Assembly: GCA_965207705.1 (NCBI GenBank)
Contig: OZ242292.1
Span: 1,413,913-1,477,912, forward strand
DNA from: Gammaproteobacteria bacterium
GTDB lineage: Bacteria > Pseudomonadota > Gammaproteobacteria > CBDBNL01 > JAAOII01
Reading direction: 5' to 3'
Length of the DNA: 64,000 nucleotides
A model generated the notes under the pieces. It made no database searches. It saw only the letters and a list, made by a program, of their open reading frames with translations, and had not been told where the DNA came from. Both the position numbers and the translations under genes were made by a program. Positions 53,990-64,000 of the stretch are shown in pieces; position 1 is the stretch's first letter; the number at the start of each line of letters is the position of its first letter.

Positions 53990-56344
53990 ATGGCTAAAAG
54001 CAAACAAACCAGCGCACCGCTAGTTGTTCGCCCTATAGAACATGAGCCACTGGCGCAATATGTGGAGCGCGCATATCTCAACTATTCAATGTATGTCATT
54101 CTGGATCGCGCCTTGCCGCAATTGGCGGATGGTCTCAAACCAGTGCAGAGAAGAATTATTTATGCGATGTCTGAGTTGGGGCTCAGAAGTGGCGCCAAGT
54201 ATAAAAAGTCAGCGCGCACCATAGGCGATGTAATAGGAAAATTTCATCCACACGGCGATGTTGCTTGTTATGAAGCAATGGTGCTGATGGCGCAACCATT
54301 TGCCACTCGTTATTGTTTAGTGGACGGGCAGGGTAATTGGGGGTCAATGGATGATGCTAAATCATTTGCCGCAATGCGTTATACCGAAGCACGCCTCACC
54401 CCTTATGCGCAACTGCTATTATCTGAGCTTAATCGCGCTACTATGGAGTGGCAGCCCAACTTTGATGGCACGCTTGAAGAACCAGTGATTTTACCGGCGC
54501 GTGTCCCGAATATCCTGTTAAATGGCGCATCCGGTATAGCGGTGGGCATGACCACAGAAATACCTTCTCACAATCTTAGTGAAGTTATGAATGCCTGCTT
54601 GTTGCTATTAGACAAGCCAGACCTAAGCGAGTATATTGCCAAGAAAAAGAAGATGACAGAATCGGAGCTGAAAAGGGCGCGCCATAGAGCAATTAAGCAG
54701 ATTATTAAGAAAATACCTTCTCCTGACTTTGCCAGCGGAGGCAGCATTATAAGTTCGCAGGATGAACTCATCGCCGCATACACCTCAGGCAATGGAAATA
54801 TCAAGGTGCGCTGTAAATATGACATTAACGGCACTGATGCCGTAATTACGCAGCTCCCTCCACAAACCTCAACCATAAAGATTATTGAGCAGCTGCAGCA
54901 ACAGATACAAAATAAAAAATTGCCGATGGTTGCTGAGATTAGAGATGAGTCGGACAGTGAAACCCCTGTGCGCTTAGTGCTGGCAACTCGCAAGGGCACT
55001 GATAGGCAGCGTCTTATGGCGCATCTGTTTGCCACTACAGATTTAGAAAAGGGCGTCAGAATTAATTTAAACGTCATAGGAACAGATGGAAAACCAGCAA
55101 TATGGGCATTAAACGAACTGCTTTATAGCTGGCTTGAATTTCGTCGTTCTTGTGTTATACAACGACTTGAAAACCAACTATCTCAAGTAAATGAGCGGCT
55201 GCATATATTAGCTGGTCTTTTGATTGCCTATTTAGATTTAGATAAGGTTATTGCAATTATTCGTAATGAAGATGAGCCAAAACCAGTGCTTATCAAAAAA
55301 TTCTCACTAAGCGATAAACAAGCAGAAGCGATACTGGAGACGAAACTGCGTCATCTCGCCAAACTGGAAGAAGAGAAAATTAAAGGAGAAGAAGAAGAAC
55401 TCACGGATAAGAAATACTATTTGGAAAGCACTCTAAAATCTAAGCAAAAGATAACTGATTTTATCAAAAAAGAGTTTAACGAAATTAAACAAGAATATGG
55501 GGATGATAGACGCAGTGAAATTCACTCAGAAGACAAGGAGATTCCCGCCGCCGAAACCTTTAAGCATGAGCATATAGTAAGTCGCGAAGCAGCTACTTTG
55601 GTAGTTTCGCAAAAGGGTTGGGTGCGGCTTGCCAAAGGACATGATATAAGCCCGCGTGAATTTACCTACCGCGAAGGGGATGGGTTCCTTTGTAGCTCGG
55701 AAGGGGATAATAATTTATTTGCAATTTTTATGGATAGCCATGGGCGCGCCTATAGTTTGTCAGCGTATGACCTTCCCTCAGCGCGCGGCTTGGGCGAGCC
55801 ACTAACTAGCCGTCTGGATATAGCCGATGGCGCTCAGATACAAGCGGGGGTTCTGATTACTCCTAAAGAAGAACTATTGTTAATTGCGGGCGATGGTAAT
55901 GGGTTTATAGTTAATGAAGAAGATTTACTCGCAGTTAATAGAAAGCGTGGTAAGCAGATTATGAACATAAAAAGCGGCGCTGGAATGATTCAGCCAGTTA
56001 AGGTGATTGAAGGGATGCAAAAAGTTGCTTGTTTAACAGAGAATAACCGCTTATTAATTTTACCGGCAGAGGATATTCCGCGCATGGGACGAGGAAAGGG
56101 TGTCAGGTTAATTAATCCAGCTTATCCCAAGGATAGAGTTAAGCAGGCGGTGATAATCAAAAAAGGGGATGCGTTGGCAATTAATGATGCAGGCAAACAA
56201 GTGGCTTTATTGATGTCTGCTGACATGGGTAAGTATCGTGCCAAAAGGGGAGCGAAGGGTAAGCTACTTGGCAAGGGCTTTAGCGAGCGGGTAGAGATAA
56301 CACCTGTTTCTTCAGTTTCTGAAACCAATAAAGAAGCTAAATGA
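53990..56344 (+). CDS. parC: DNA topoisomerase IV subunit A
   Basis: [51 protein letters not shown]. Confidence 0.97.
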
Positions 56345-57637
56345 TGACTCTTGGAAGCGGTTATTGCTGCCATAGAATATTCCCAAAGCTGGGATACTAA
56401 TTTGGCGCGGATATATGTATGAGGCAATGCCCCAGGCGGCATAGTCAAAGTTGTCGTCCGCTACGTTAGGGACATCCCATAAGTAACCATAATCAACAAA
56501 AGGACTAATAGTCCAAAAGATGGATCTTGTGCCAACAATAGGAATTTGATATTCAGCCCCTATAGTTGTGTATTGCCGCGCCCAACCGCCGCCGCTTGAA
56601 ATGCCGCGCGACCCTGCCTCATTGCCAATTTTAAAACTATCATAAGCATTGCTGCTATCTTGGCTAGCACCGTCTAAACTCAACTGGAATACATTCTTGC
56701 CATAAGAGGGCAACCCCCAATAGATGCTTGTAGCAAAAAAGCTATTACGAATTTTGCCGTCATCAGAATTAAAATCTCCAGCGATTGATTGTGAGATTTG
56801 AAAGCCCTTTTGATAATAGTATTCAGCGTTTAAATTACTCCATTCGTAGTTTATCTCAAGTGATTGTGAGTCAATTTTTACTAATTCATCTGCCAGTTGA
56901 GTTCCACTGCGCAATTCATTGCTATCAGATTCAAAATTATTTATTGTATAGGAATAAGACATACTAAATTCAGGAGTGATGTATTGCCTTAATCTTAAAG
57001 AGAAACTATTAGATTTTTCATTGCTACGATAAATCCAATCATCCGCATCAAACTGATAATTGGTTATATCATTGCTACTTGTGGATATGAACAAGCCATA
57101 ATCTCCTTGCGCATCCACATAAGGAATACCATAGAAAAACGCATAGCTATCTCTTTGCTCGCTTATTTGCCGTCTAAACGAGCTACCAAAAATATTGCCA
57201 GTGCCGCCTATGTTGGAATCAAAAATGAATGCGCCCCAAGCGGCTTCATTTGGCTCCTCCCCACTTTGGTAACTGGGAATTCCCAGAAAGCTCCATTTAT
57301 CTTTTACGCGAATAGATACTTCTGTTGTTGATAATCTTTGCACTGTCACTTCGCTAAACAGCCCTTGATTTGTCAGGCATTGCTCTAATTGAGCTTCCCC
57401 TGTTGGCAATGAGGGAAATCTTCCACGTTCAATGTCTTTATAGCAGATACGTACTAGTTTCTTTATATAAGATGTTTTGGTGCGTTTATTGCCGCTAATT
57501 TGTAGTTGGTCTGTAGTGGATTCTTGCGCCTGGCTGAACGAACTCCAGCATAAGATGATTGAGCAGCAGATTAATTTTTGAGTTATGACTCTGTTTAATA
57601 ATAGCATTCTTTGAGTTTTAAAAAATATTCTATACAC
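56312..57637 (-). CDS. Omp85/BamA-TamA-like outer-membrane protein with a single POTRA-like domain (true start may be ATG 57607)
   Basis: Signal peptide (...SFSQA), [13 protein letters not shown] start, GLFSEV, VKDKW, NIGGTG, aromatic-rich beta strands, SRG loop, PFVDYG. Confidence 0.72.
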
Positions 57638-57699: not shown

Positions 57700-58254
57700 T
57701 TAGGCGCCCCAAGTCATCCGTTTAAGAACATTATCTTTAACTATGAAATGGTGATAAAGAGCAGCGAGCAGATGCAATATAATAAAAATCTTTAACCCAG
57801 TGGGGATTACTTCATAATGTATAGTTTTGATTACCTCTACCGCCAAACCATCGGATAATGTAAGTGGAGGAATTCTGAATATATTAAAAAAAGGAACGGC
57901 TCTGCCATCAAGCAATTTGCCAAGCATGCCGCTTATAGGTTGCATTAATACCGCAATGTATAGTATCCAATGACTAATAGTGGACAACTTGCGCATCCAG
58001 GGAGGAGTCGTTGGCTCATGCTCTGGTTTCTTGTTGAAGAAAACCCATATTAAACGCAAGCACACCAGCATAAAAACTGTTATCCCAAGGGACTGATGCA
58101 ACCATACAAAGAAACGGCGCGTCTCGTCTCCTCTTGGTAAGTCGTGAGTAATTTCATGGTCAAGTAGCAGATATACAACAAGCACAAACATCACCCAATG
58201 AAAGATTTTGCTTATCAGCCCATAGCGCTCTACTGAGTTTTTAATTTGAATCAT
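57700..58254 (-). CDS. Cytochrome b561 (CybB/YceJ family)
   Basis: RYGLISKIFHW, HQSLG, SHWILY, PISG, LHLLAALYHHF, DNVLKRM. Confidence 0.93.
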   Translation of the reverse strand: MIQIKNSVERYGLISKIFHWVMFVLVVYLLLDHEITHDLPRGDETRRFFVWLHQSLGITVFMLVCLRLIWVFFNKKPEHEPTTPPWMRKLSTISHWILYIAVLMQPISGMLGKLLDGRAVPFFNIFRIPPLTLSDGLAVEVIKTIHYEVIPTGLKIFIILHLLAALYHHFIVKDNVLKRMTWGA

Positions 58255-58289
58255 AATTAAAGTATAAGTGAAATATAAATAAAGTAATC

Positions 58290-59117
58290 TTATGCCTCCA
58301 CACAGGGTGCTGGACTAAGGACGTTAATTGTAGCAGGATTAATCTGAAAAATATAATGATTATTTACTGCTGATAACTTTCCTTCCACCTCTATTAGGTC
58401 CAACATATAGGGAAGAATATGTTCAATGTTTGCTTCCTCTTCCATAACTGTAGTTAGGACGACGCGGTTAAGAGTCGTTGCTTGCGGCACAAATATCGGC
58501 GGAATTCCACCCCTTACGCATAAAGATGCGCAGGATTTATGAGTCATGCCCATAGACGGTCTCATTACTCCAAAATGGCATTTACTATCTATAATTCTTC
58601 CTCTTAGCTTATGAGTTCCCAGTTCCTTTACTTTGGTGGTAGCAATATTTATGTTTTTACGCAAGGTAGACACTTCTGATAGCGCTTCAAATAAATAGTT
58701 ATACCTAACGTCATGACGGGTAAGTAGTTTACCGCTGACATTTACATATTTTTCATCTAACTCATTAACCAATTGATGAGCGCCATGTTTGCCCTGTTTC
58801 ACCAAGAAAACCGTATCATAGCCACTGGGGGAGTAATGATTAGGCACCAATAGATAAGGGTATGGTTCTTTTACTAATTGACCGCGTAATGATATAGCTC
58901 TTGCTCCCCAGGTTGCCGCCTCAGGTTTTTTCTGCCTGGCAGCTATAAGTCCGCCAAATCCACCTATTGCCGCAATTAACAATGGTATTGTCGCCAATAG
59001 TAAACGACGTTCGCGGTTTGGCATTTTCTGGTAGCCAATAAAAAAATTATCCTTTTCCTTCGGTGCCTTCTGTTTTTCCTGTTTCTTCCCTTTAGCGTTC
59101 ATCTTCGTCTGACCCAT
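58290..59117 (-). CDS. Uncharacterised membrane-anchored protein with Cys/His motif
   Basis: Basic N-terminus, FFIGY, one TM, KQGKHG, DSKCHFGVMRP...HKSCASLCVRGGIPP. Confidence 0.8.
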   Translation of the reverse strand: MGQTKMNAKGKKQEKQKAPKEKDNFFIGYQKMPNRERRLLLATIPLLIAAIGGFGGLIAARQKKPEAATWGARAISLRGQLVKEPYPYLLVPNHYSPSGYDTVFLVKQGKHGAHQLVNELDEKYVNVSGKLLTRHDVRYNYLFEALSEVSTLRKNINIATTKVKELGTHKLRGRIIDSKCHFGVMRPSMGMTHKSCASLCVRGGIPPIFVPQATTLNRVVLTTVMEEEANIEHILPYMLDLIEVEGKLSAVNNHYIFQINPATINVLSPAPCVEA

Positions 59118-59135
59118 CTGATTATTTTATGCTAC

Positions 59136-60179
59136 TTATTTTATTATAGCCGCTTTGGTTTTCTTACCCGCTGCATTAGGAGTTTGATTAATCTGCACAA
59201 TTCCATTTTTAATCCGCACATTATAGGTGGGTATTTTCTCAGTAAAAGGGGCTGGCGACCTGCCGTTTTCTGGCATATATTCATAGCCATGCCAAGGGCA
59301 TACTATGCGTCCATTGACTACCATTCCTTCACACAGTGGACCATTTTGATGAGCACAAGCGTTGGCGACTGCAACTATGCGGTCCTTATCATAGCGGAAT
59401 ACTGCTATCTTATCTCCCTTACTTAGAGTAAAACCCTTAGCGCGGTTATTCTCTATACTTCTAGCTGGGCACAAAGAAACCCATTCCTCTGTTGATGTGG
59501 TGCGTTTGTCGGCGAGCAGCTCCTTAATTGCCACTAATATATGTAGTCCCGCTAAGGCGCTTGCCGCGGCGCCAAGAACATAAATATTATTCATATCCCC
59601 TTCTGTTTGTATGAAGCCGAATAAGACGTGAGCGATTAAGAAAGAATAAGCAAAATATACGCCTATATGCAGTAGTTTCCATAACGGGGCAGTAAAGAAC
59701 TTAAGCCAAAAATCATGGCTGGTAAGAGCCATTATCAGCAAAATAGCGTAAGCTGCCAGTCCATATATTTCAAAAGGAAAGCGGCTCATGTCTGCATAAT
59801 TAGGGTTGCTGGTAATAAGAGAAGCGAATGGGGGAATAACCCCATAGCCGTGATACCAAACGATGGCAAGCGATAGATGCCCGCTAGCTACTAATATCAT
59901 ACTTACCCCCAGATGGCGGCGATTATATAGTAGCGGCTTGAATACAGATGATAGACGCGCCAATGGACCTATGAATAAAATAATATGCAGCATTATGAAA
60001 GCGCAGGTCCCGAGAGCTCTGATAAGCAGAGTTGTCTGGCTTATGTCGCGTGGTTGGGGATGCATAAAGTAGGATACCGCCATATAAGTGGCTACATATC
60101 CAATAACCCCAATAATTATGAATACATCATAAGTAATTTTGAGTTTATTCCATTGGATTGCTTGATAGTCGGCGCTCAT
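59136..60179 (-). CDS. Ferric-reductase-like (MsrQ/YedZ-type) heme-b membrane domain fused to a C-terminal Rieske [2Fe-2S] domain
   Basis: About 6 TM with IGPLAR, NRRHLG, ALTSHD, WKLLH, AH; C-terminal CAHQNGPL...CPWHG. Confidence 0.92.
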   Translation of the reverse strand: MSADYQAIQWNKLKITYDVFIIIGVIGYVATYMAVSYFMHPQPRDISQTTLLIRALGTCAFIMLHIILFIGPLARLSSVFKPLLYNRRHLGVSMILVASGHLSLAIVWYHGYGVIPPFASLITSNPNYADMSRFPFEIYGLAAYAILLIMALTSHDFWLKFFTAPLWKLLHIGVYFAYSFLIAHVLFGFIQTEGDMNNIYVLGAAASALAGLHILVAIKELLADKRTTSTEEWVSLCPARSIENNRAKGFTLSKGDKIAVFRYDKDRIVAVANACAHQNGPLCEGMVVNGRIVCPWHGYEYMPENGRSPAPFTEKIPTYNVRIKNGIVQINQTPNAAGKKTKAAIIK

Positions 60180-60373
60180 TGTACTTGTTCCTCTGCTTCT
60201 TTTTTAGGGTTGAAATCTTCCTCCCATTGTTCAAATAATTCGCTTTGTTGGCTCAGGTTTGCTTGCTGTTGTTGGTTCAGTACCAGAGTGCGGGCAAGCA
60301 CAAAAGCTACGGCAAGAGACGCCAGTAAAACAATCCATATAAAAAAATGCAGTTTCCTATGCCAGTTCTTCAT
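60176..60373 (-). CDS. Small single-TM hypothetical protein
   Basis: 65 aa; HRKLH followed by a TM; 4-bp overlaps with both neighbours. Confidence 0.7.
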   Translation of the reverse strand: MKNWHRKLHFFIWIVLLASLAVAFVLARTLVLNQQQQANLSQQSELFEQWEEDFNPKKEAEEQVQ

Positions 60374-60675
60374 TGAGTTTTACTATGCTTCATTACTTTT
60401 GTGTTTGCTTTTTGTTTTTCTTTCTTTTTGGCGATTAAATATTTACGTATTATGAGGGAAACCTTGCCAATCGTAATTGGCATAATTAGGGGCCAGAGTA
60501 GCATAGCCGCTGGTAGAATCATTATCCTAAAACCGGAACTACCACCACGCGCATGAATGTCCATAAGGTTAACTAAGAATGTTATAAACACCAAAGCAAA
60601 CAATAGCCCGAAGCCCGCATAAGAGGCAGCCACGAGTAAAGGTAACGGATAAGCAGCTAAAATTTCTTGTATCAC
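60370..60675 (-). CDS. Small two-TM hypothetical protein
   Basis: 101 aa, GTG start; YAGFGLLFA...D..A.G...GFR...P...LWP pattern; first gene of the coupled operon. Confidence 0.72.
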   Translation of the reverse strand: MIQEILAAYPLPLLVAASYAGFGLLFALVFITFLVNLMDIHARGGSSGFRIMILPAAMLLWPLIMPITIGKVSLIIRKYLIAKKKEKQKANTKVMKHSKTQ

Positions 60676-60839
60676 AATTAGTAGTATTATAAAGAAAGAT
60701 ACTATCTAATCCTACAATGTTATATAGAAAAATCTGCGGCAGCATAGATAACCCCAGATAATCATTGCAGGGAATATCTGTTTCTTAATCTGTTATTAAA
60801 GTTCTAATTTTTTAGTCATTAAACCCGTAAAATAAGAGT

Positions 60840-61421
60840 ATGCTTATGACACGTTTGGTAATACTTGACCGAGATGGGGTGATAAATAGCGATGATAAGG
60901 GCTATGTGAAGTCGCCTGATGAATGGCAGCCGATTCCTGGCAGTTTGGAAGCAATTGCGGCAATGCAAGTCAGCGGACTAAAGCTAGCGGTTGCCACCAA
61001 TCAAAGTGGCATTGCCAGGAATTTCTACACCGAGCAAGATTTAATGGCAATTCACAATAAAATGGAACAGCTGTTAGAACAGTTAGGGGCAAAAATTGAC
61101 GTAATAGCTTTTTGTCCTCATGGTCCTGATGATGGCTGCGCGTGCCGCAAGCCAAAGCCAGGAATGCTGCGTCAGATAAGCCGTGACTTGGGAATTGCCG
61201 CAAACGAAAGTATTTTTATTGGAGATTCACTTAAGGATATTGAAGCCGCGATAGCGCATGGTTGTAGTCCAATATTGGTGCAGACAGGTAACGGGTTACG
61301 CACTGCAGAATTACTTAAACAACAGCAGCTTAAAGTAGAAATATTTGCCGATTTGGCGAGTGCGAGTGAGCATATTTTATCAGATATTAATAAATCGGGA
61401 AATGAAAATGAACATGAATAA
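60840..61421 (+). CDS. gmhB: D-glycero-D-manno-heptose 1,7-bisphosphate phosphatase
   Basis: LDRDGVIN, TNQSGIAR, CPH...CACRKPKPGM, IGDS. Confidence 0.95.
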   Translation: MLMTRLVILDRDGVINSDDKGYVKSPDEWQPIPGSLEAIAAMQVSGLKLAVATNQSGIARNFYTEQDLMAIHNKMEQLLEQLGAKIDVIAFCPHGPDDGCACRKPKPGMLRQISRDLGIAANESIFIGDSLKDIEAAIAHGCSPILVQTGNGLRTAELLKQQQLKVEIFADLASASEHILSDINKSGNENEHE

Positions 61422-61944
61422 ACATAATCTTACGCCTTCTAATGGACTGCCTAATATACGTATCGGGCAGGGCTATGACCTGCATGCTTTAGTTGCTGGG
61501 GATGGGATATGGTTGGGGGGAATATTAGTTCCCTGCGATAAAAAAACTTTGGCTCACTCGGATGGCGATGTTCTGCTGCATGCTATTTGTGATGCATTAT
61601 TAGGAGCATGCAACATAAAAGGAGCAGAAGACATAGGAGCTATGTTTCCTGATACAGACGATAACTGGAAGGACGTCGCAAGTTCGGTATTGATTAAGCG
61701 ATGCATGGAAGTGTTGCAAGCAAATAACTATCAAGTGGTGAATATTGACAGCACCATTGTGCTGGAAAGACCACTGCTTGCCGATTATAAACCGCAGATG
61801 CGTAATAATATTGCTCAGCTGCTTGGCATTGATGAAGATGCCGTTAGCATAAAGGCTACGCGTGGGGAAGGACTGGATGCGATTGGTAGAGGCGAAGCGC
61901 TGGCAGTCCATTGTGTATGTCTTATACATAAGCATAAGGTATAA
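61414..61944 (+). CDS. ispF: 2-C-methyl-D-erythritol 2,4-cyclodiphosphate synthase (start probably ATG 61414, not 61345)
   Basis: RIGQGYDLH, HSDGDVLLHA, DALLGA, DIG..FPD, SIKAT. Confidence 0.96.
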   Translation: MNKHNLTPSNGLPNIRIGQGYDLHALVAGDGIWLGGILVPCDKKTLAHSDGDVLLHAICDALLGACNIKGAEDIGAMFPDTDDNWKDVASSVLIKRCMEVLQANNYQVVNIDSTIVLERPLLADYKPQMRNNIAQLLGIDEDAVSIKATRGEGLDAIGRGEALAVHCVCLIHKHKV

Positions 61945-62039: not shown

Positions 62040-63464
62040 ATGAGTAATAAGGAGATAAAGATTAAGAAAGGATTGGATATTCCCATGAGCGGAATGCCCG
62101 TTCAATCCTCTCCTGAGGTTAAAGAAACCGAGCAGGTTGCCCTGTTGGGTGGGGATTATCATGGGTTAAAACCAGCTATGGCGGTTGAGGTTGGAGACCA
62201 GGTCAAAAAAGGTACTGTTTTGTTTGCCGCTAAGCAAAACCAGGGAGTTGTATATACTTCACCGGCTTCAGGCGAGGTTGTAGCAATAAATCGCGGCGCG
62301 AGAAGAAAGTTAGTGTCGGTGGTAGTGGCAGTTGACGGCAAGGACACGCAAGAAAAATTTTCATCTTTTTCCACACAACAACTCAATAAAATCAAGGCGG
62401 CGGATATCGCCAAACAATTACAACTCAGCGGCTTATGGTGTGCTTTACGTACCCGTCCTTTTAGCAAGATTCCTGCCGTATCCAGCCAGGCGGATGCGAT
62501 ATTCATCAATGTGATGGCAGAAGATAAGCATTCTGCAGACCCGCAGTTATTTTTACAAGAACATACTAATGATTTTATTCAAGGGGTCAAGATTTTAGCG
62601 GCATTGACAAAAGAAAAAGGTCGCATTTTTGTCTCCCATGCTCCGCATATCCAATTACCAAATTTGCCACAGCAAAATAATGCTTCTATTACCACTGCAA
62701 CTTTCAGTGGCAAGTATCCTGCTTCTCTCAGCGGCACCCACATGCATTTTTTATACCCTGCAGGGCGCGGAGTAACCAATTGGTGTATTAATTATCAGGA
62801 TACCGCAGCGATCGGCAGATTATTCTTAACTGGGGAATTGATGAATCAACGGATGATAAGCATAGCAGGACCAGGAATTAGTAATCCACGTCCGCTAATA
62901 ACTTCTCTGGGCGCTAATGTGGAAGAACTTACCGCAGGAGAACTACAAGGCAATAACAACCGATTAATTTCTGGTTCGGTATTAAATGGTTCTATAGCAG
63001 GAGGAGCGGGAGGAGCGGAAGCAGCAGGAGAGAGCGATGCTGATGTCGGCAGTGAGTTTTTAGGCAGATACCACCTACAACTAACCGCACTTAATAGAGG
63101 TGATACAAGGGAGTTTATGGGCTGGATGTCGCCAGGTTTTAATAAATTCTCAGTGCAGAATATCTATGTTTCCAAATTATTCAAGAGCAAATTATTTAAT
63201 TTTACCAGCACCACTAATGGCAGTGAAAGGGCTATGGTTCCTATGGGCACTTACGAAAAAATTATGCCTCATAATATGCTGCCAACTCAATTATTACGTT
63301 CCTTATTGGTAGAAGATATTGAAATGGCAGAACGACTTGGCTGTTTGGAACTTGACGAAGAGGATCTGGCGCTTTGCTCTTTTGTGTGTCCTGGCAAATA
63401 TGAGTATGGCGAGGCGCTGCGCGAGAATCTTACAAGAATTGAGAAGGAAAATTGGGACACTTAA
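62040..63464 (+). CDS. nqrA: Na+-translocating NADH:quinone reductase subunit A
   Basis: IKIKKGLDIP, RTRPFSK, ISGSVL, GSERAMVP, LELDEEDLALCSFVCPGKYEYG. Confidence 0.97.
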   Translation: MSNKEIKIKKGLDIPMSGMPVQSSPEVKETEQVALLGGDYHGLKPAMAVEVGDQVKKGTVLFAAKQNQGVVYTSPASGEVVAINRGARRKLVSVVVAVDGKDTQEKFSSFSTQQLNKIKAADIAKQLQLSGLWCALRTRPFSKIPAVSSQADAIFINVMAEDKHSADPQLFLQEHTNDFIQGVKILAALTKEKGRIFVSHAPHIQLPNLPQQNNASITTATFSGKYPASLSGTHMHFLYPAGRGVTNWCINYQDTAAIGRLFLTGELMNQRMISIAGPGISNPRPLITSLGANVEELTAGELQGNNNRLISGSVLNGSIAGGAGGAEAAGESDADVGSEFLGRYHLQLTALNRGDTREFMGWMSPGFNKFSVQNIYVSKLFKSKLFNFTSTTNGSERAMVPMGTYEKIMPHNMLPTQLLRSLLVEDIEMAERLGCLELDEEDLALCSFVCPGKYEYGEALRENLTRIEKENWDT

Positions 63465-63523
63465 ATTTTATGCAACTAATATATACTTGTTGCAACAAGC
63501 TCAACATATAATTATTATCTATT

Positions 63524-64000
63524 ATGATTAAACGGATGATGGCCTCTCTTGCTCCTTATTTTGAGAAAGGAGGCAAATATGAAAAATGGTATCCTTTATT
63601 TGAAGCGGTAGATACCATCCTATATACACCTGGCAAGGTCGCCAAGCATGCTCCTTATGTGCGTGATGGAATTGATATGAAGCGGGTGATGATAACTGTT
63701 TGGTTATGCGCTTTCCCTGCGATGTTTTGGGGTATGTGGAATATCGGTAATCAGGCGCTGGTTGCAATTGTTGAAAGCGGTTTAAGTGCTCCAGATGGTT
63801 GGCGCGGCGCCCTAATAGCTTCTTTAAGTTCACTAAACCCCAACAGTATTTGGGATTGCTTTGTTTACGGCGGAGTTTATTTTATTCCCATTTACTTTGT
63901 AGTATTTGTAGTGGGAGGGTTCTGGGAAGTGCTATTTGCCATGGTGCGGCGTCATGAAATTAATGAGGGCTTTTTTGTTACCTCAATCTTATTTGCTTTA
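63524..64000 (+). CDS. nqrB: Na+-translocating NADH:quinone reductase subunit B, 3'-truncated by window edge (absent from the ORF track)
   Basis: Manual translation from ATG 63524: MIKRMMASLAPYFEKGGKYEKWYPLFEAVDT...VRDGIDMKRVM...GGFWEVLFA...HEINEGFFVTS, open to the end of the window. Confidence 0.96.
   Translation, partial: MIKRMMASLAPYFEKGGKYEKWYPLFEAVDTILYTPGKVAKHAPYVRDGIDMKRVMITVWLCAFPAMFWGMWNIGNQALVAIVESGLSAPDGWRGALIASLSSLNPNSIWDCFVYGGVYFIPIYFVVFVVGGFWEVLFAMVRRHEINEGFFVTSILFAL

Follow-up and report, generated by a model that had tools for sequence, protein, structure and literature searches.

To which acceptor, and to what end, would a bacterium send electrons through a membrane protein that joins a ferric-reductase-type haem domain to a Rieske ferredoxin? 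The question is raised by an operon in a gammaproteobacterial genome (assembly GCA_965207705.1), found in a stretch of 64,000 nucleotides (nt) of contig OZ242292.1 (positions 1,413,913 to 1,477,912, forward strand), hereafter the window. Five open reading frames (ORFs) follow one another there on the minus strand and encode two small membrane proteins (A and B), the fusion protein itself (C), a membrane-anchored protein with conserved cysteines and histidine (D) and a cytochrome b561. To our knowledge, transmembrane electron export by bacterial proteins with a ferric reductase domain (FRD) is known for one family only, MsrQ. Our preferred reading, which we advance tentatively, is that A to D could form an inner-membrane complex exporting electrons to a predicted copper site on D, that is, a module that reduces Cu(II) or handles copper in the periplasm.

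A, B, C and D are a conserved unit

Conservation was assessed in 80 genome loci, which are the best-scoring 80 of 83 confirmed ones rather than a random draw and come mostly from Alphaproteobacteria, with four Gammaproteobacteria close to the window, and in an even sample of 401 Pseudomonadota genomes that includes the window's own. Related genomes are not independent in the counts from either set. The 80 loci include those of the cultured carriers Ruegeria atlantica (L028), Hwanghaeella grinnelliae (L030), Roseovarius conchicola (L047), Tateyamaria sp. SN6-1 (L058) and Terripilifer ovatus (L076). In 77 of the 80 loci the gene directly after C is a D homologue, and the other three loci end less than 400 nt past C; the start of D overlaps the stop of C by 4 nt in 53 of 76 loci. 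An iterative search with hidden Markov models found an A-like gene just upstream of C in 76/80 loci; of the four misses, three offer fewer than 200 nt before C, and in the fourth, L074, the C gene is disrupted at its 5' end. B takes two forms. It can be an ORF of its own (about 50-65 amino acids, aa) or, in most Alphaproteobacteria, the C-terminal third of an ORF of about 122 aa in which A and B are fused and whose end reaches 4 nt into C. Among the sampled genomes C is present in 11 of 401, the window's own included and spread over seven families; these 11 and no others also have full-length D, in each case next to C. Since the arrangement is conserved across 80 genomes and not read from the window alone, it is not a product of chance.

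C and D are even joined in single proteins, as natural C-D fusions exist in several distant versions (P0045, P0318, P0346, P0353), and an N-terminally truncated one (P0233) keeps the Rieske domain and D. The structure model of P0045 (pLDDT 88.3, pTM 0.86) has seven transmembrane (TM) helices, a Rieske domain and two oligonucleotide/oligosaccharide-binding (OB) folds. The conserved unit is thus made of A, B, C and D, and the initial annotation, which had been made from the sequence of the window, was right to treat these four as a coupled gene set. It had also counted the cytochrome b561 as a member, and this did not hold: the 184-aa protein is a clear member of PF01292 (102.5 bits, cut-off 30.1), yet such a gene lies near C in only two of the 80 loci (L001 and L003) and comes directly after D here and in L001. 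It is a lineage-specific neighbour and was rejected as part of the system, as was an adjacent 441-aa ORF that also occurs in 2/80 loci. A fifth small gene, for a protein with two TM helices, follows D in 47/80 loci, all of them outside the window's clade.

Fusions of the C type are widespread: among 8,000 candidates scored, 5,055 clusters (90% identity) passed E 0.001, and the best 120 of these all have both domains and carry generic names only.

Protein C, protein D and the predicted electron path

Pfam recognises Ferric_reduct (PF01794) at residues 56-181 of C (44.7 bits, cut-off 28) and Rieske (PF00355) at residues 232-319 (57.1 bits, cut-off 20.3); these were the only matches, with no fused FAD or NAD(P)H dehydrogenase domain among the Pfam families. 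C is the sole FRD protein in the window's genome. Hydrophobicity gives six TM segments, and the basic residues number 4 and 2 in the loops after TM2 and TM4 against 1, 1 and 0 in the odd loops. Because the basic loops lie on the even side, both termini of C, and hence its Rieske domain, are predicted to be cytoplasmic, which bears out the topology of about six TM helices with an internal Rieske domain that had been proposed at the outset. Two histidine pairs, H89/H101 in TM3 and H171/H184 in TM5 (spaced by 12 and 13 residues), are invariant in alignments of 80 and of 71 sequences; H155 is likewise invariant and H213 nearly so. The four haem-type histidines form the ferric reductase domain's two-haem signature and, at the level of sequence, point to two predicted b haems. 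Equally invariant in both alignments are the Rieske ligands C275, H277, C294 and H297 (CxH...CxxH).

The TM helices of the P0045 model match the six-TM domain of C, and its Rieske part matches the Rieske ferredoxins of carbazole, toluene and biphenyl systems, with TM-scores (by target) of 0.80-0.89. Rieske proteins of the bc1 type carry a conserved disulfide pair; C283 of the window's C is replaced by Gly in 94% of the family. Judged by the model, the Rieske domain of C is of the electron-shuttle ferredoxin type and lacks the bc1-type disulfide pair. It shares ligands and fold with CarAc, BphF and T4moC. Ferredoxins of such oxygenase systems relay electrons from one protein to the next, and the recipient is often a further Rieske centre. 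The Rieske domain of C differs from them in being tethered to a membrane haem protein, and there is no oxygenase in the operon.

C had initially been described as MsrQ-like. In outline the comparison is apt, for in the MsrQ-MsrP (YedZ-YedY) system of E. coli an FRD haem b protein is also encoded beside a periplasmic partner and sends electrons outward (PMC3591440, PMC5449189, in the portions of both available to us). The accessible part of PMC3591440 describes YedZ as keeping only three of the four histidines, whereas C has all four invariant and a C-terminal Rieske domain. The MsrQ equivalog model NF003831 scores C at 33.3 bits, far below its cut-off of 130, and an MsrP-type molybdoenzyme (PF00174) found no match in the window's genome (93% complete). 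The description was dropped on these grounds. The partners differ as well, D being a membrane-anchored protein with tandem OB folds and MsrP a Tat-exported molybdoenzyme, and the C system has two extra small membrane subunits, A and B. With the NOX, FRE and STEAP families C shares the six-helix domain, the histidine pairs in TM3 and TM5 and a fused cytoplasmic input domain (PMC3591440, accessible sections), and outside the membrane some of these proteins act as reductases of Fe(III) and Cu(II) (PMC3591440, PMC7558416, likewise from the accessible sections). Here a Rieske [2Fe-2S] ferredoxin takes the place of FAD/NADPH or F420-type domains as the input, and the acceptor is a dedicated partner protein, D.

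A, B and D match no family in Pfam or NCBIfam. In A, the periplasmic loop carries a conserved motif (D-x-x-A-R-G-x-x-x-F-R ... L-W-P-L) and the cytoplasmic tail is basic; in B, the motif H-R-x-x-H-x-x-x-W is N-terminal and the periplasmic tail is acidic. D was aligned in 76 sequences, leaving aside L035 (truncated) and L056 (running off its contig). Its cytoplasmic part bears the motif F-F-x-G-Y in the window protein, of which F-F-x-G is invariant in the family. Residues 177-206 carry D-x-K-C-x2-G-x-M-R-P-x2-G-x2-H-K-x-C-A-x-L-C-x5-P, in which C180, M185, P187, H193, C196 and C200 are invariant across the 76 sequences. In the AlphaFold model (pLDDT 86.5, pTM 0.75) residues 34-61 are the anchor helix, and beta domains span residues 68-158 and 164-270; the Cys/His motif sits in an insertion of the second OB fold, in which a loop links a short helix to another helix (178-202). 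Since H193, C196 and C200 are spaced by 3 and 4 residues, they probably lie on one helix face. The periplasmic placing first suggested for the Cys/His protein is borne out: D is predicted to be a single-pass protein whose Cys/His domain faces outward, and the natural C-D fusions share exactly this topology.

No solved structure matched the sequence of D at E 0.01 or better (best 0.044), Foldseek returned nothing for the model at E 0.001 or better (its top rows were tandem-OB proteins), and VIA-align gave generic OB folds at Z 5-7.6, the usual background level. As modelled, the fold is a tandem OB for which these searches found no functional relative; it is not a thioredoxin fold, and D has no CxxC motif. 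The D profile finds 2,259 representatives at 50% identity (E 0.001 or better), which makes this a large family. Among its best 120 relatives those with a name are all called 'hypothetical', and a precomputed Pfam domain occurs only in the fusion P0233. A D homologue stored in a structure atlas retrieves its own family only, under an automatic 'DUF5666' label and with no common Pfam family. DUF5818 (PF19135) does not match the window's D and weakly matches 11 of the 76 members (best E 1.6e-6), none of 30 when tested singly at E 0.05; we found no paper mentioning it. Fusion partners of D other than C did not score in a search of longer proteins, which is weak evidence. Export through the twin-arginine (Tat) route was considered for the RERRLL sequence of the window protein and rejected; a twin arginine precedes the TM helix in only 11/77 members, so that export is presumably by Sec and a pre-assembled Fe-S cluster in D is unlikely.

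Probable electron donors, a lead to copper and the competing readings

Two groups of Rieske-fused enzymes recur beside the operon. A Rieske-GltS-like gene, coding for an N-terminal Rieske domain and a glutamate-synthase-type flavin mononucleotide (FMN) domain, lies directly upstream of A in 16/80 loci, and a Rieske-TPP (thiamine pyrophosphate) protein of about 660 aa is encoded within 5 kb of the C operon in 14/80. In the window's genome the two genes sit side by side about 0.9 Mb from the operon, each flanked by a Sulfotransfer_2 gene. We searched the 401 sampled genomes with the Rieske-TPP junction of the latter protein as query. The Rieske-TPP enzyme was found in 8 of the 11 genomes with C and in none of the 390 without it; the eight fall in 5 families, in which kin are not independent. 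In the seven of them other than the window's own it lies within about 3 kb of C, and these same seven (of ten) have a full-length Rieske-GltS-like gene next to the operon. The enzyme is present in 27 of the 50 further C-bearing genomes searched. Its best models are pyruvate oxidase and ubiquinone-dependent pyruvate dehydrogenase, at 381 bits against a cut-off of 742, and it falls below every curated cut-off. PoxB, the pyruvate:quinone oxidoreductase of this best-matching class, delivers electrons to the membrane; the Rieske-TPP enzyme is set apart from it by its N-terminal Rieske domain and its sub-threshold score.

Full-length Rieske-GltS-like genes also occur in at least 11 sampled genomes without C, where the protein would have a partner or role independent of the membrane module. 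These genomes (family f41; for example G069, L087:7569-9182) are small (1.4-2.9 Mb) and have neither D nor the Rieske-TPP enzyme, and in G069 the Rieske-GltS-like gene adjoins one for a CDP-alcohol phosphatidyltransferase. The window's genome encodes five Rieske proteins in all, three of which belong to C and its donor set, and in G233 and G204 three Rieske proteins are clustered. Together these cytoplasmic Rieske-fused enzymes probably act as electron donors to C. The initial annotation had seen no partner of the kinds that MsrQ and Rieske ferredoxins normally serve; donor-like enzymes do exist, beside the operon in other genomes and at a distance in this one. Our literature searches found neither the Rieske-GltS-like nor the Rieske-TPP fusion. 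As a separate observation, several loci of Parvibaculaceae and Roseovarius (L005-L011, L045, L047), two separate lineages, encode, no more than 5 kb from the operon, a TPP enzyme that lacks a Rieske domain and, paired with it, a family III CoA-transferase. The pair recalls oxalyl-CoA decarboxylase and formyl-CoA transferase, with scores below all curated cut-offs.

The lead to copper comes from a second family. In eight of the 401 genomes the D profile also matched short proteins, over the second OB domain only. These proteins are secreted, consist of a single domain, measure about 147 aa and carry Sec signal peptides as well as the motif C...M...H-x2-C-x3-C. Aligned with hhalign, the second OB domain of D and this family are homologous (probability 96.6%, E 6.9e-10, 93 columns), and the alignment pairs all five residues C180, M185, H193, C196 and C200. 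A reciprocal search of the window's genome with the secreted-family profile matched D only (E 7.4e-7). The family thus shares the domain, the motif and the extracytoplasmic location of D; it differs in standing alone, with neither membrane anchor nor C partner, and is itself uncharacterised. Its gene lies upstream of SCO1/SenC and on the same strand in 8/8 genome loci, SCO1/SenC being identified by Pfam (SCO1-SenC) in two of them and by tblastn in all eight. In a metagenome set of 79 loci, the best of 456 relatives, 64 loci extend at least 1,400 nt downstream and 58 of these have a SCO1 homologue; all 62 SCO1 matches are on the same strand. SCO1/SenC is a copper chaperone of cytochrome oxidase, according to the available text of PMC7558416.

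Between the two genes lies another, so that a cluster of three on one strand (L090-L097 and, from metagenomes, L098-L176) encodes the Cys/His OB protein, a second secreted Cys-rich protein and SCO1/SenC. The second protein is about 175 aa long with the motif V-D-x-L-C-x5-C-x3-C-G, and like the first it belongs to no Pfam family. It has no detectable kinship with the first OB fold of D (hhalign probability 4%). Both small secreted proteins look like unstudied companions of the SCO1/SenC copper chaperone. The initial annotation had offered metal reduction, thiol or sulfur redox chemistry, or defence against oxidants as roles for the system. The homology to the SCO1-linked family favours metal reduction, with copper as the metal, over the other two.

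The scheme that follows is one that we infer, and this goes for the binding of haem and copper, for the direction in which electrons flow, for the donors and for the physiological role. A cytoplasmic donor, in many genomes probably the Rieske-TPP enzyme, the Rieske-GltS-like FMN enzyme or both, would reduce the Rieske cluster of C, which is of the ferredoxin type. The electron would cross the membrane by way of an inner b haem, ligated by H89/H171, and an outer one, ligated by H101/H184. It would then reach the periplasmic second OB domain of D, where the Cys3-His-Met site probably binds copper, and Cu(I) might in this way be supplied to cuproproteins, for example to cytochrome oxidase at its CuA centre. 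The window's genome has one aa3-type (haem-copper) oxidase, and neither SCO1/SenC nor PCuAC was found in it at its completeness of 93%. SCO1/SenC was not found in four related gammaproteobacterial genomes either (G401-G404; these and the window's genome are small, 1.3-2.3 Mb); an alphaproteobacterial carrier of C and D does have SCO1. A bolder form of the proposal, which we consider doubtful, is that the system is a Rieske-fed haem cupric reductase and copper-insertion machine that replaces Sco and PCuAC in aerobes without them, such as this organism and its relatives, and is powered by its own Rieske-fused TPP and FMN dehydrogenases. The closest functional parallel to the cupric reductase is CcoG of Rhodobacter capsulatus, a membrane-bound Cu(II) reductase for cuproenzyme biogenesis that takes part in cbb3 oxidase assembly. 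Unlike C, CcoG has two [4Fe-4S] clusters, and its physiological donor is not known, as stated in the accessible part of PMC7558416; it has no haems, Rieske domain or OB-fold partner, and we saw no sequence relation to C or D.

Several points weigh against the copper reading. D itself is not upstream of SCO1/SenC and follows C instead. The copper link is guilt by association through a paralogous family, and no SCO1, copper ATPase or other copper gene was found among the recurrent neighbours of the D operons. SCO proteins can also act as thiol-disulfide reductases, and the association with SCO1 therefore fits thiol chemistry too. The Rieske-TPP enzyme was not found in 3 of the 10 other sampled C-bearing genomes or in 23 of the 50 further ones, where the donors would differ. 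Finally, a Rieske-TPP enzyme serving a mere copper-maturation device would be metabolically odd, and a respiratory role fits it better.

That respiratory role is the main rival. Rieske-fused dehydrogenases would feed C, and the metal of D would be a fixed redox centre passing electrons to periplasmic carriers or an oxidase, in the window's clade perhaps to quinone via the neighbouring cytochrome b561. Such a branch would account for the confinement of the Rieske-TPP enzyme to C-bearing genomes in the sample and its recurrence in the further set, for its resemblance (below cut-off) to pyruvate oxidases, and for the clusters of three Rieske proteins in G233 and G204. The b561 gene after D here and in L001 would find a place, and Cys, His and Met ligands are typical of electron-transfer copper centres. 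We nonetheless judge it unlikely, given that exporting electrons before they reach an oxidase would waste membrane potential, that b561 accompanies so few of the loci, that many genomes with C and D have no Rieske-fused enzyme, and that the secreted homologues of the D domain go with a copper chaperone and not with respiratory carriers. Should the flow run the other way, D would oxidise a periplasmic donor and C would carry electrons inward to the Rieske network, for instance to drive the GltS-like FMN enzyme. Glutamate-synthase FMN domains are normally reductive, the Rieske-GltS-like gene is the first of the operon in those 16 loci, and inward flow would conserve energy. Against this, the pyruvate-oxidase-like partner is an electron source and no sink, the Rieske-GltS-like gene also occurs where C does not, and MsrQ, NOX, FRE and STEAP work outward (PMC3591440), no characterised FRD protein being known to us to move electrons inward; of all the readings, reversed flow strikes us as the least probable.

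Alternatively, the cysteines of D might be redox-active rather than metal ligands, in a thiol or sulfur relay that keeps periplasmic cysteines (of CuA or Sco-type proteins, for example) reduced. D has three invariant cysteines, including a C-x3-C pair on one helix, and its secreted relatives are encoded together with another Cys-rich secreted protein and with SCO1/SenC, whose fold is thioredoxin-like. We find such a relay improbable, because haems and a Rieske cluster carry one electron while disulfide reduction needs two, the His and Met that accompany the cysteines, both invariant, resemble metal ligands, and D has none of the structural marks of a thioredoxin. A reductase of Fe(III), with D holding the ferric ion, a chelate or another metal for uptake, would suit the Pfam family of C, the eukaryotic relatives that reduce Fe(III) as well as Cu(II) (PMC3591440 and PMC7558416, accessible text) and the many carriers that are, judged from record titles, marine Alphaproteobacteria. 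This too is improbable, and slightly more so: a search of the region before the operon, in 59 loci and in the window, gave no match to consensus motifs for Fur, Irr or RirA boxes, iron-uptake genes are not among the recurrent neighbours, and the homologues of D go with a copper chaperone. Weighed together, these arguments leave copper reduction or handling by A to D as the reading that we prefer, at the tentative strength given above.

Genomic setting, earlier literature and meaning

The ORF listing of the window and the sequence itself confirmed the layout initially described, namely the ORF sizes, the overlaps of 4 nt between A and B and between B and C, the gap of 18 nt between C and D and the place of the TATAAT hexamer; all positions are collected in Table 1.

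Table 1. Positions of the operon features in the window, with the Rieske-fused genes elsewhere in the same genome
Feature	Position	Strand	Basis or remark
TATAAT hexamer	60686..60691	minus	10 nt before the GTG of gene A; read directly from sequence
Gene A, 101 aa, GTG start, small 2-TM protein	60370..60675	minus	ORF listing
Gene B, 65 aa, 1-TM protein	60176..60373	minus	ORF listing
Gene C, 347 aa, whole	59136..60179	minus	ORF listing
C residues 1-225, ferric-reductase-type six-TM domain	59505..60179	minus	Pfam PF01794
C residues 232-335, Rieske [2Fe-2S] domain, ferredoxin (oxygenase-system) type	59175..59486	minus	Pfam PF00355
Gene D, 275 aa	58290..59117	minus	ORF listing, family alignment, structure model
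D residues 177-206, Cys/His/Met motif, proposed copper site	58500..58589	minus	invariant alignment columns
Cytochrome b561 gene, 184 aa	57700..58254	minus	Pfam PF01292; 35 nt past D
Rieske-GltS-like (538 aa) and Rieske-TPP (654 aa) genes	G000:C1:536898-540530 (L086:5899-9531)	minus	outside the window

The hexamer is a possible -10 box, in which case the transcript would be nearly leaderless. A promoter scan of the region found 14 sites where shuffled sequences gave 15.8; this is chance level, and the hexamer consequently adds no statistical evidence. The terminator scan of the region was uninformative, and a 10-mer that recurs in nine loci probably reflects close kinship among them.

Around the operon, the 441-aa ORF (56312-57637, minus strand) follows the b561 gene here and sits between D and b561 in L003. 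The N-terminus of its product resembles a signal peptide. The protein matches no Pfam family and, in NCBIfam, only faintly a model of the Omp85/Toc75 type (E 0.009); it may belong to the outer membrane and be confined to the window's clade. The plus-strand neighbours (53990-56344, 60840-61944 and 62040-64000) are ordinary housekeeping genes, including a HAD-type phosphatase and IspF (YgbB) by Pfam scan. Read from their translations, a plus-strand ORF of 784 aa presumably encodes topoisomerase IV subunit A, and two others presumably encode NqrA and the start of NqrB.

The initial annotation had known of no characterised system with this composition. That stands for the operon, since our literature searches found no paper on it, nor on an MsrQ-type protein with a Rieske domain in such a system, nor one pairing the 'FMN-binding glutamate synthase family' with Rieske. 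It does not stand for the fusion architecture, which has been in print since 2013: 'FRD + Rieske' is listed as bacterial model M4, with no function assigned in the accessible part of PMC3591440. A further candidate, PMC5676040, was set aside, as 'Rieske' is there the name of an author in the reference list. As regards copper, the available text of PMC7558416 knows of no specific bacterial cupric reductase other than CcoG and describes the haem-type enzymes as eukaryotic.

C and D would thus represent a second and widespread bacterial exporter built on the ferric reductase domain, with Rieske input, two predicted haems, new small subunits and an unnamed partner family. Two uncharacterised families of Rieske-fused enzymes become linked to a membrane acceptor, several large 'hypothetical' families acquire a testable function, and the unstudied three-gene SCO1/SenC cluster is exposed as a further lead. 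If the copper reading holds, the system would fill a recognised gap, namely the provision of Cu(I) in a periplasm that is oxidising, by means of a haem-based, Rieske-fed cupric reductase, a class not described in bacteria. And if its bolder form were true, central carbon oxidation would directly power the delivery of copper outside the cytoplasm.

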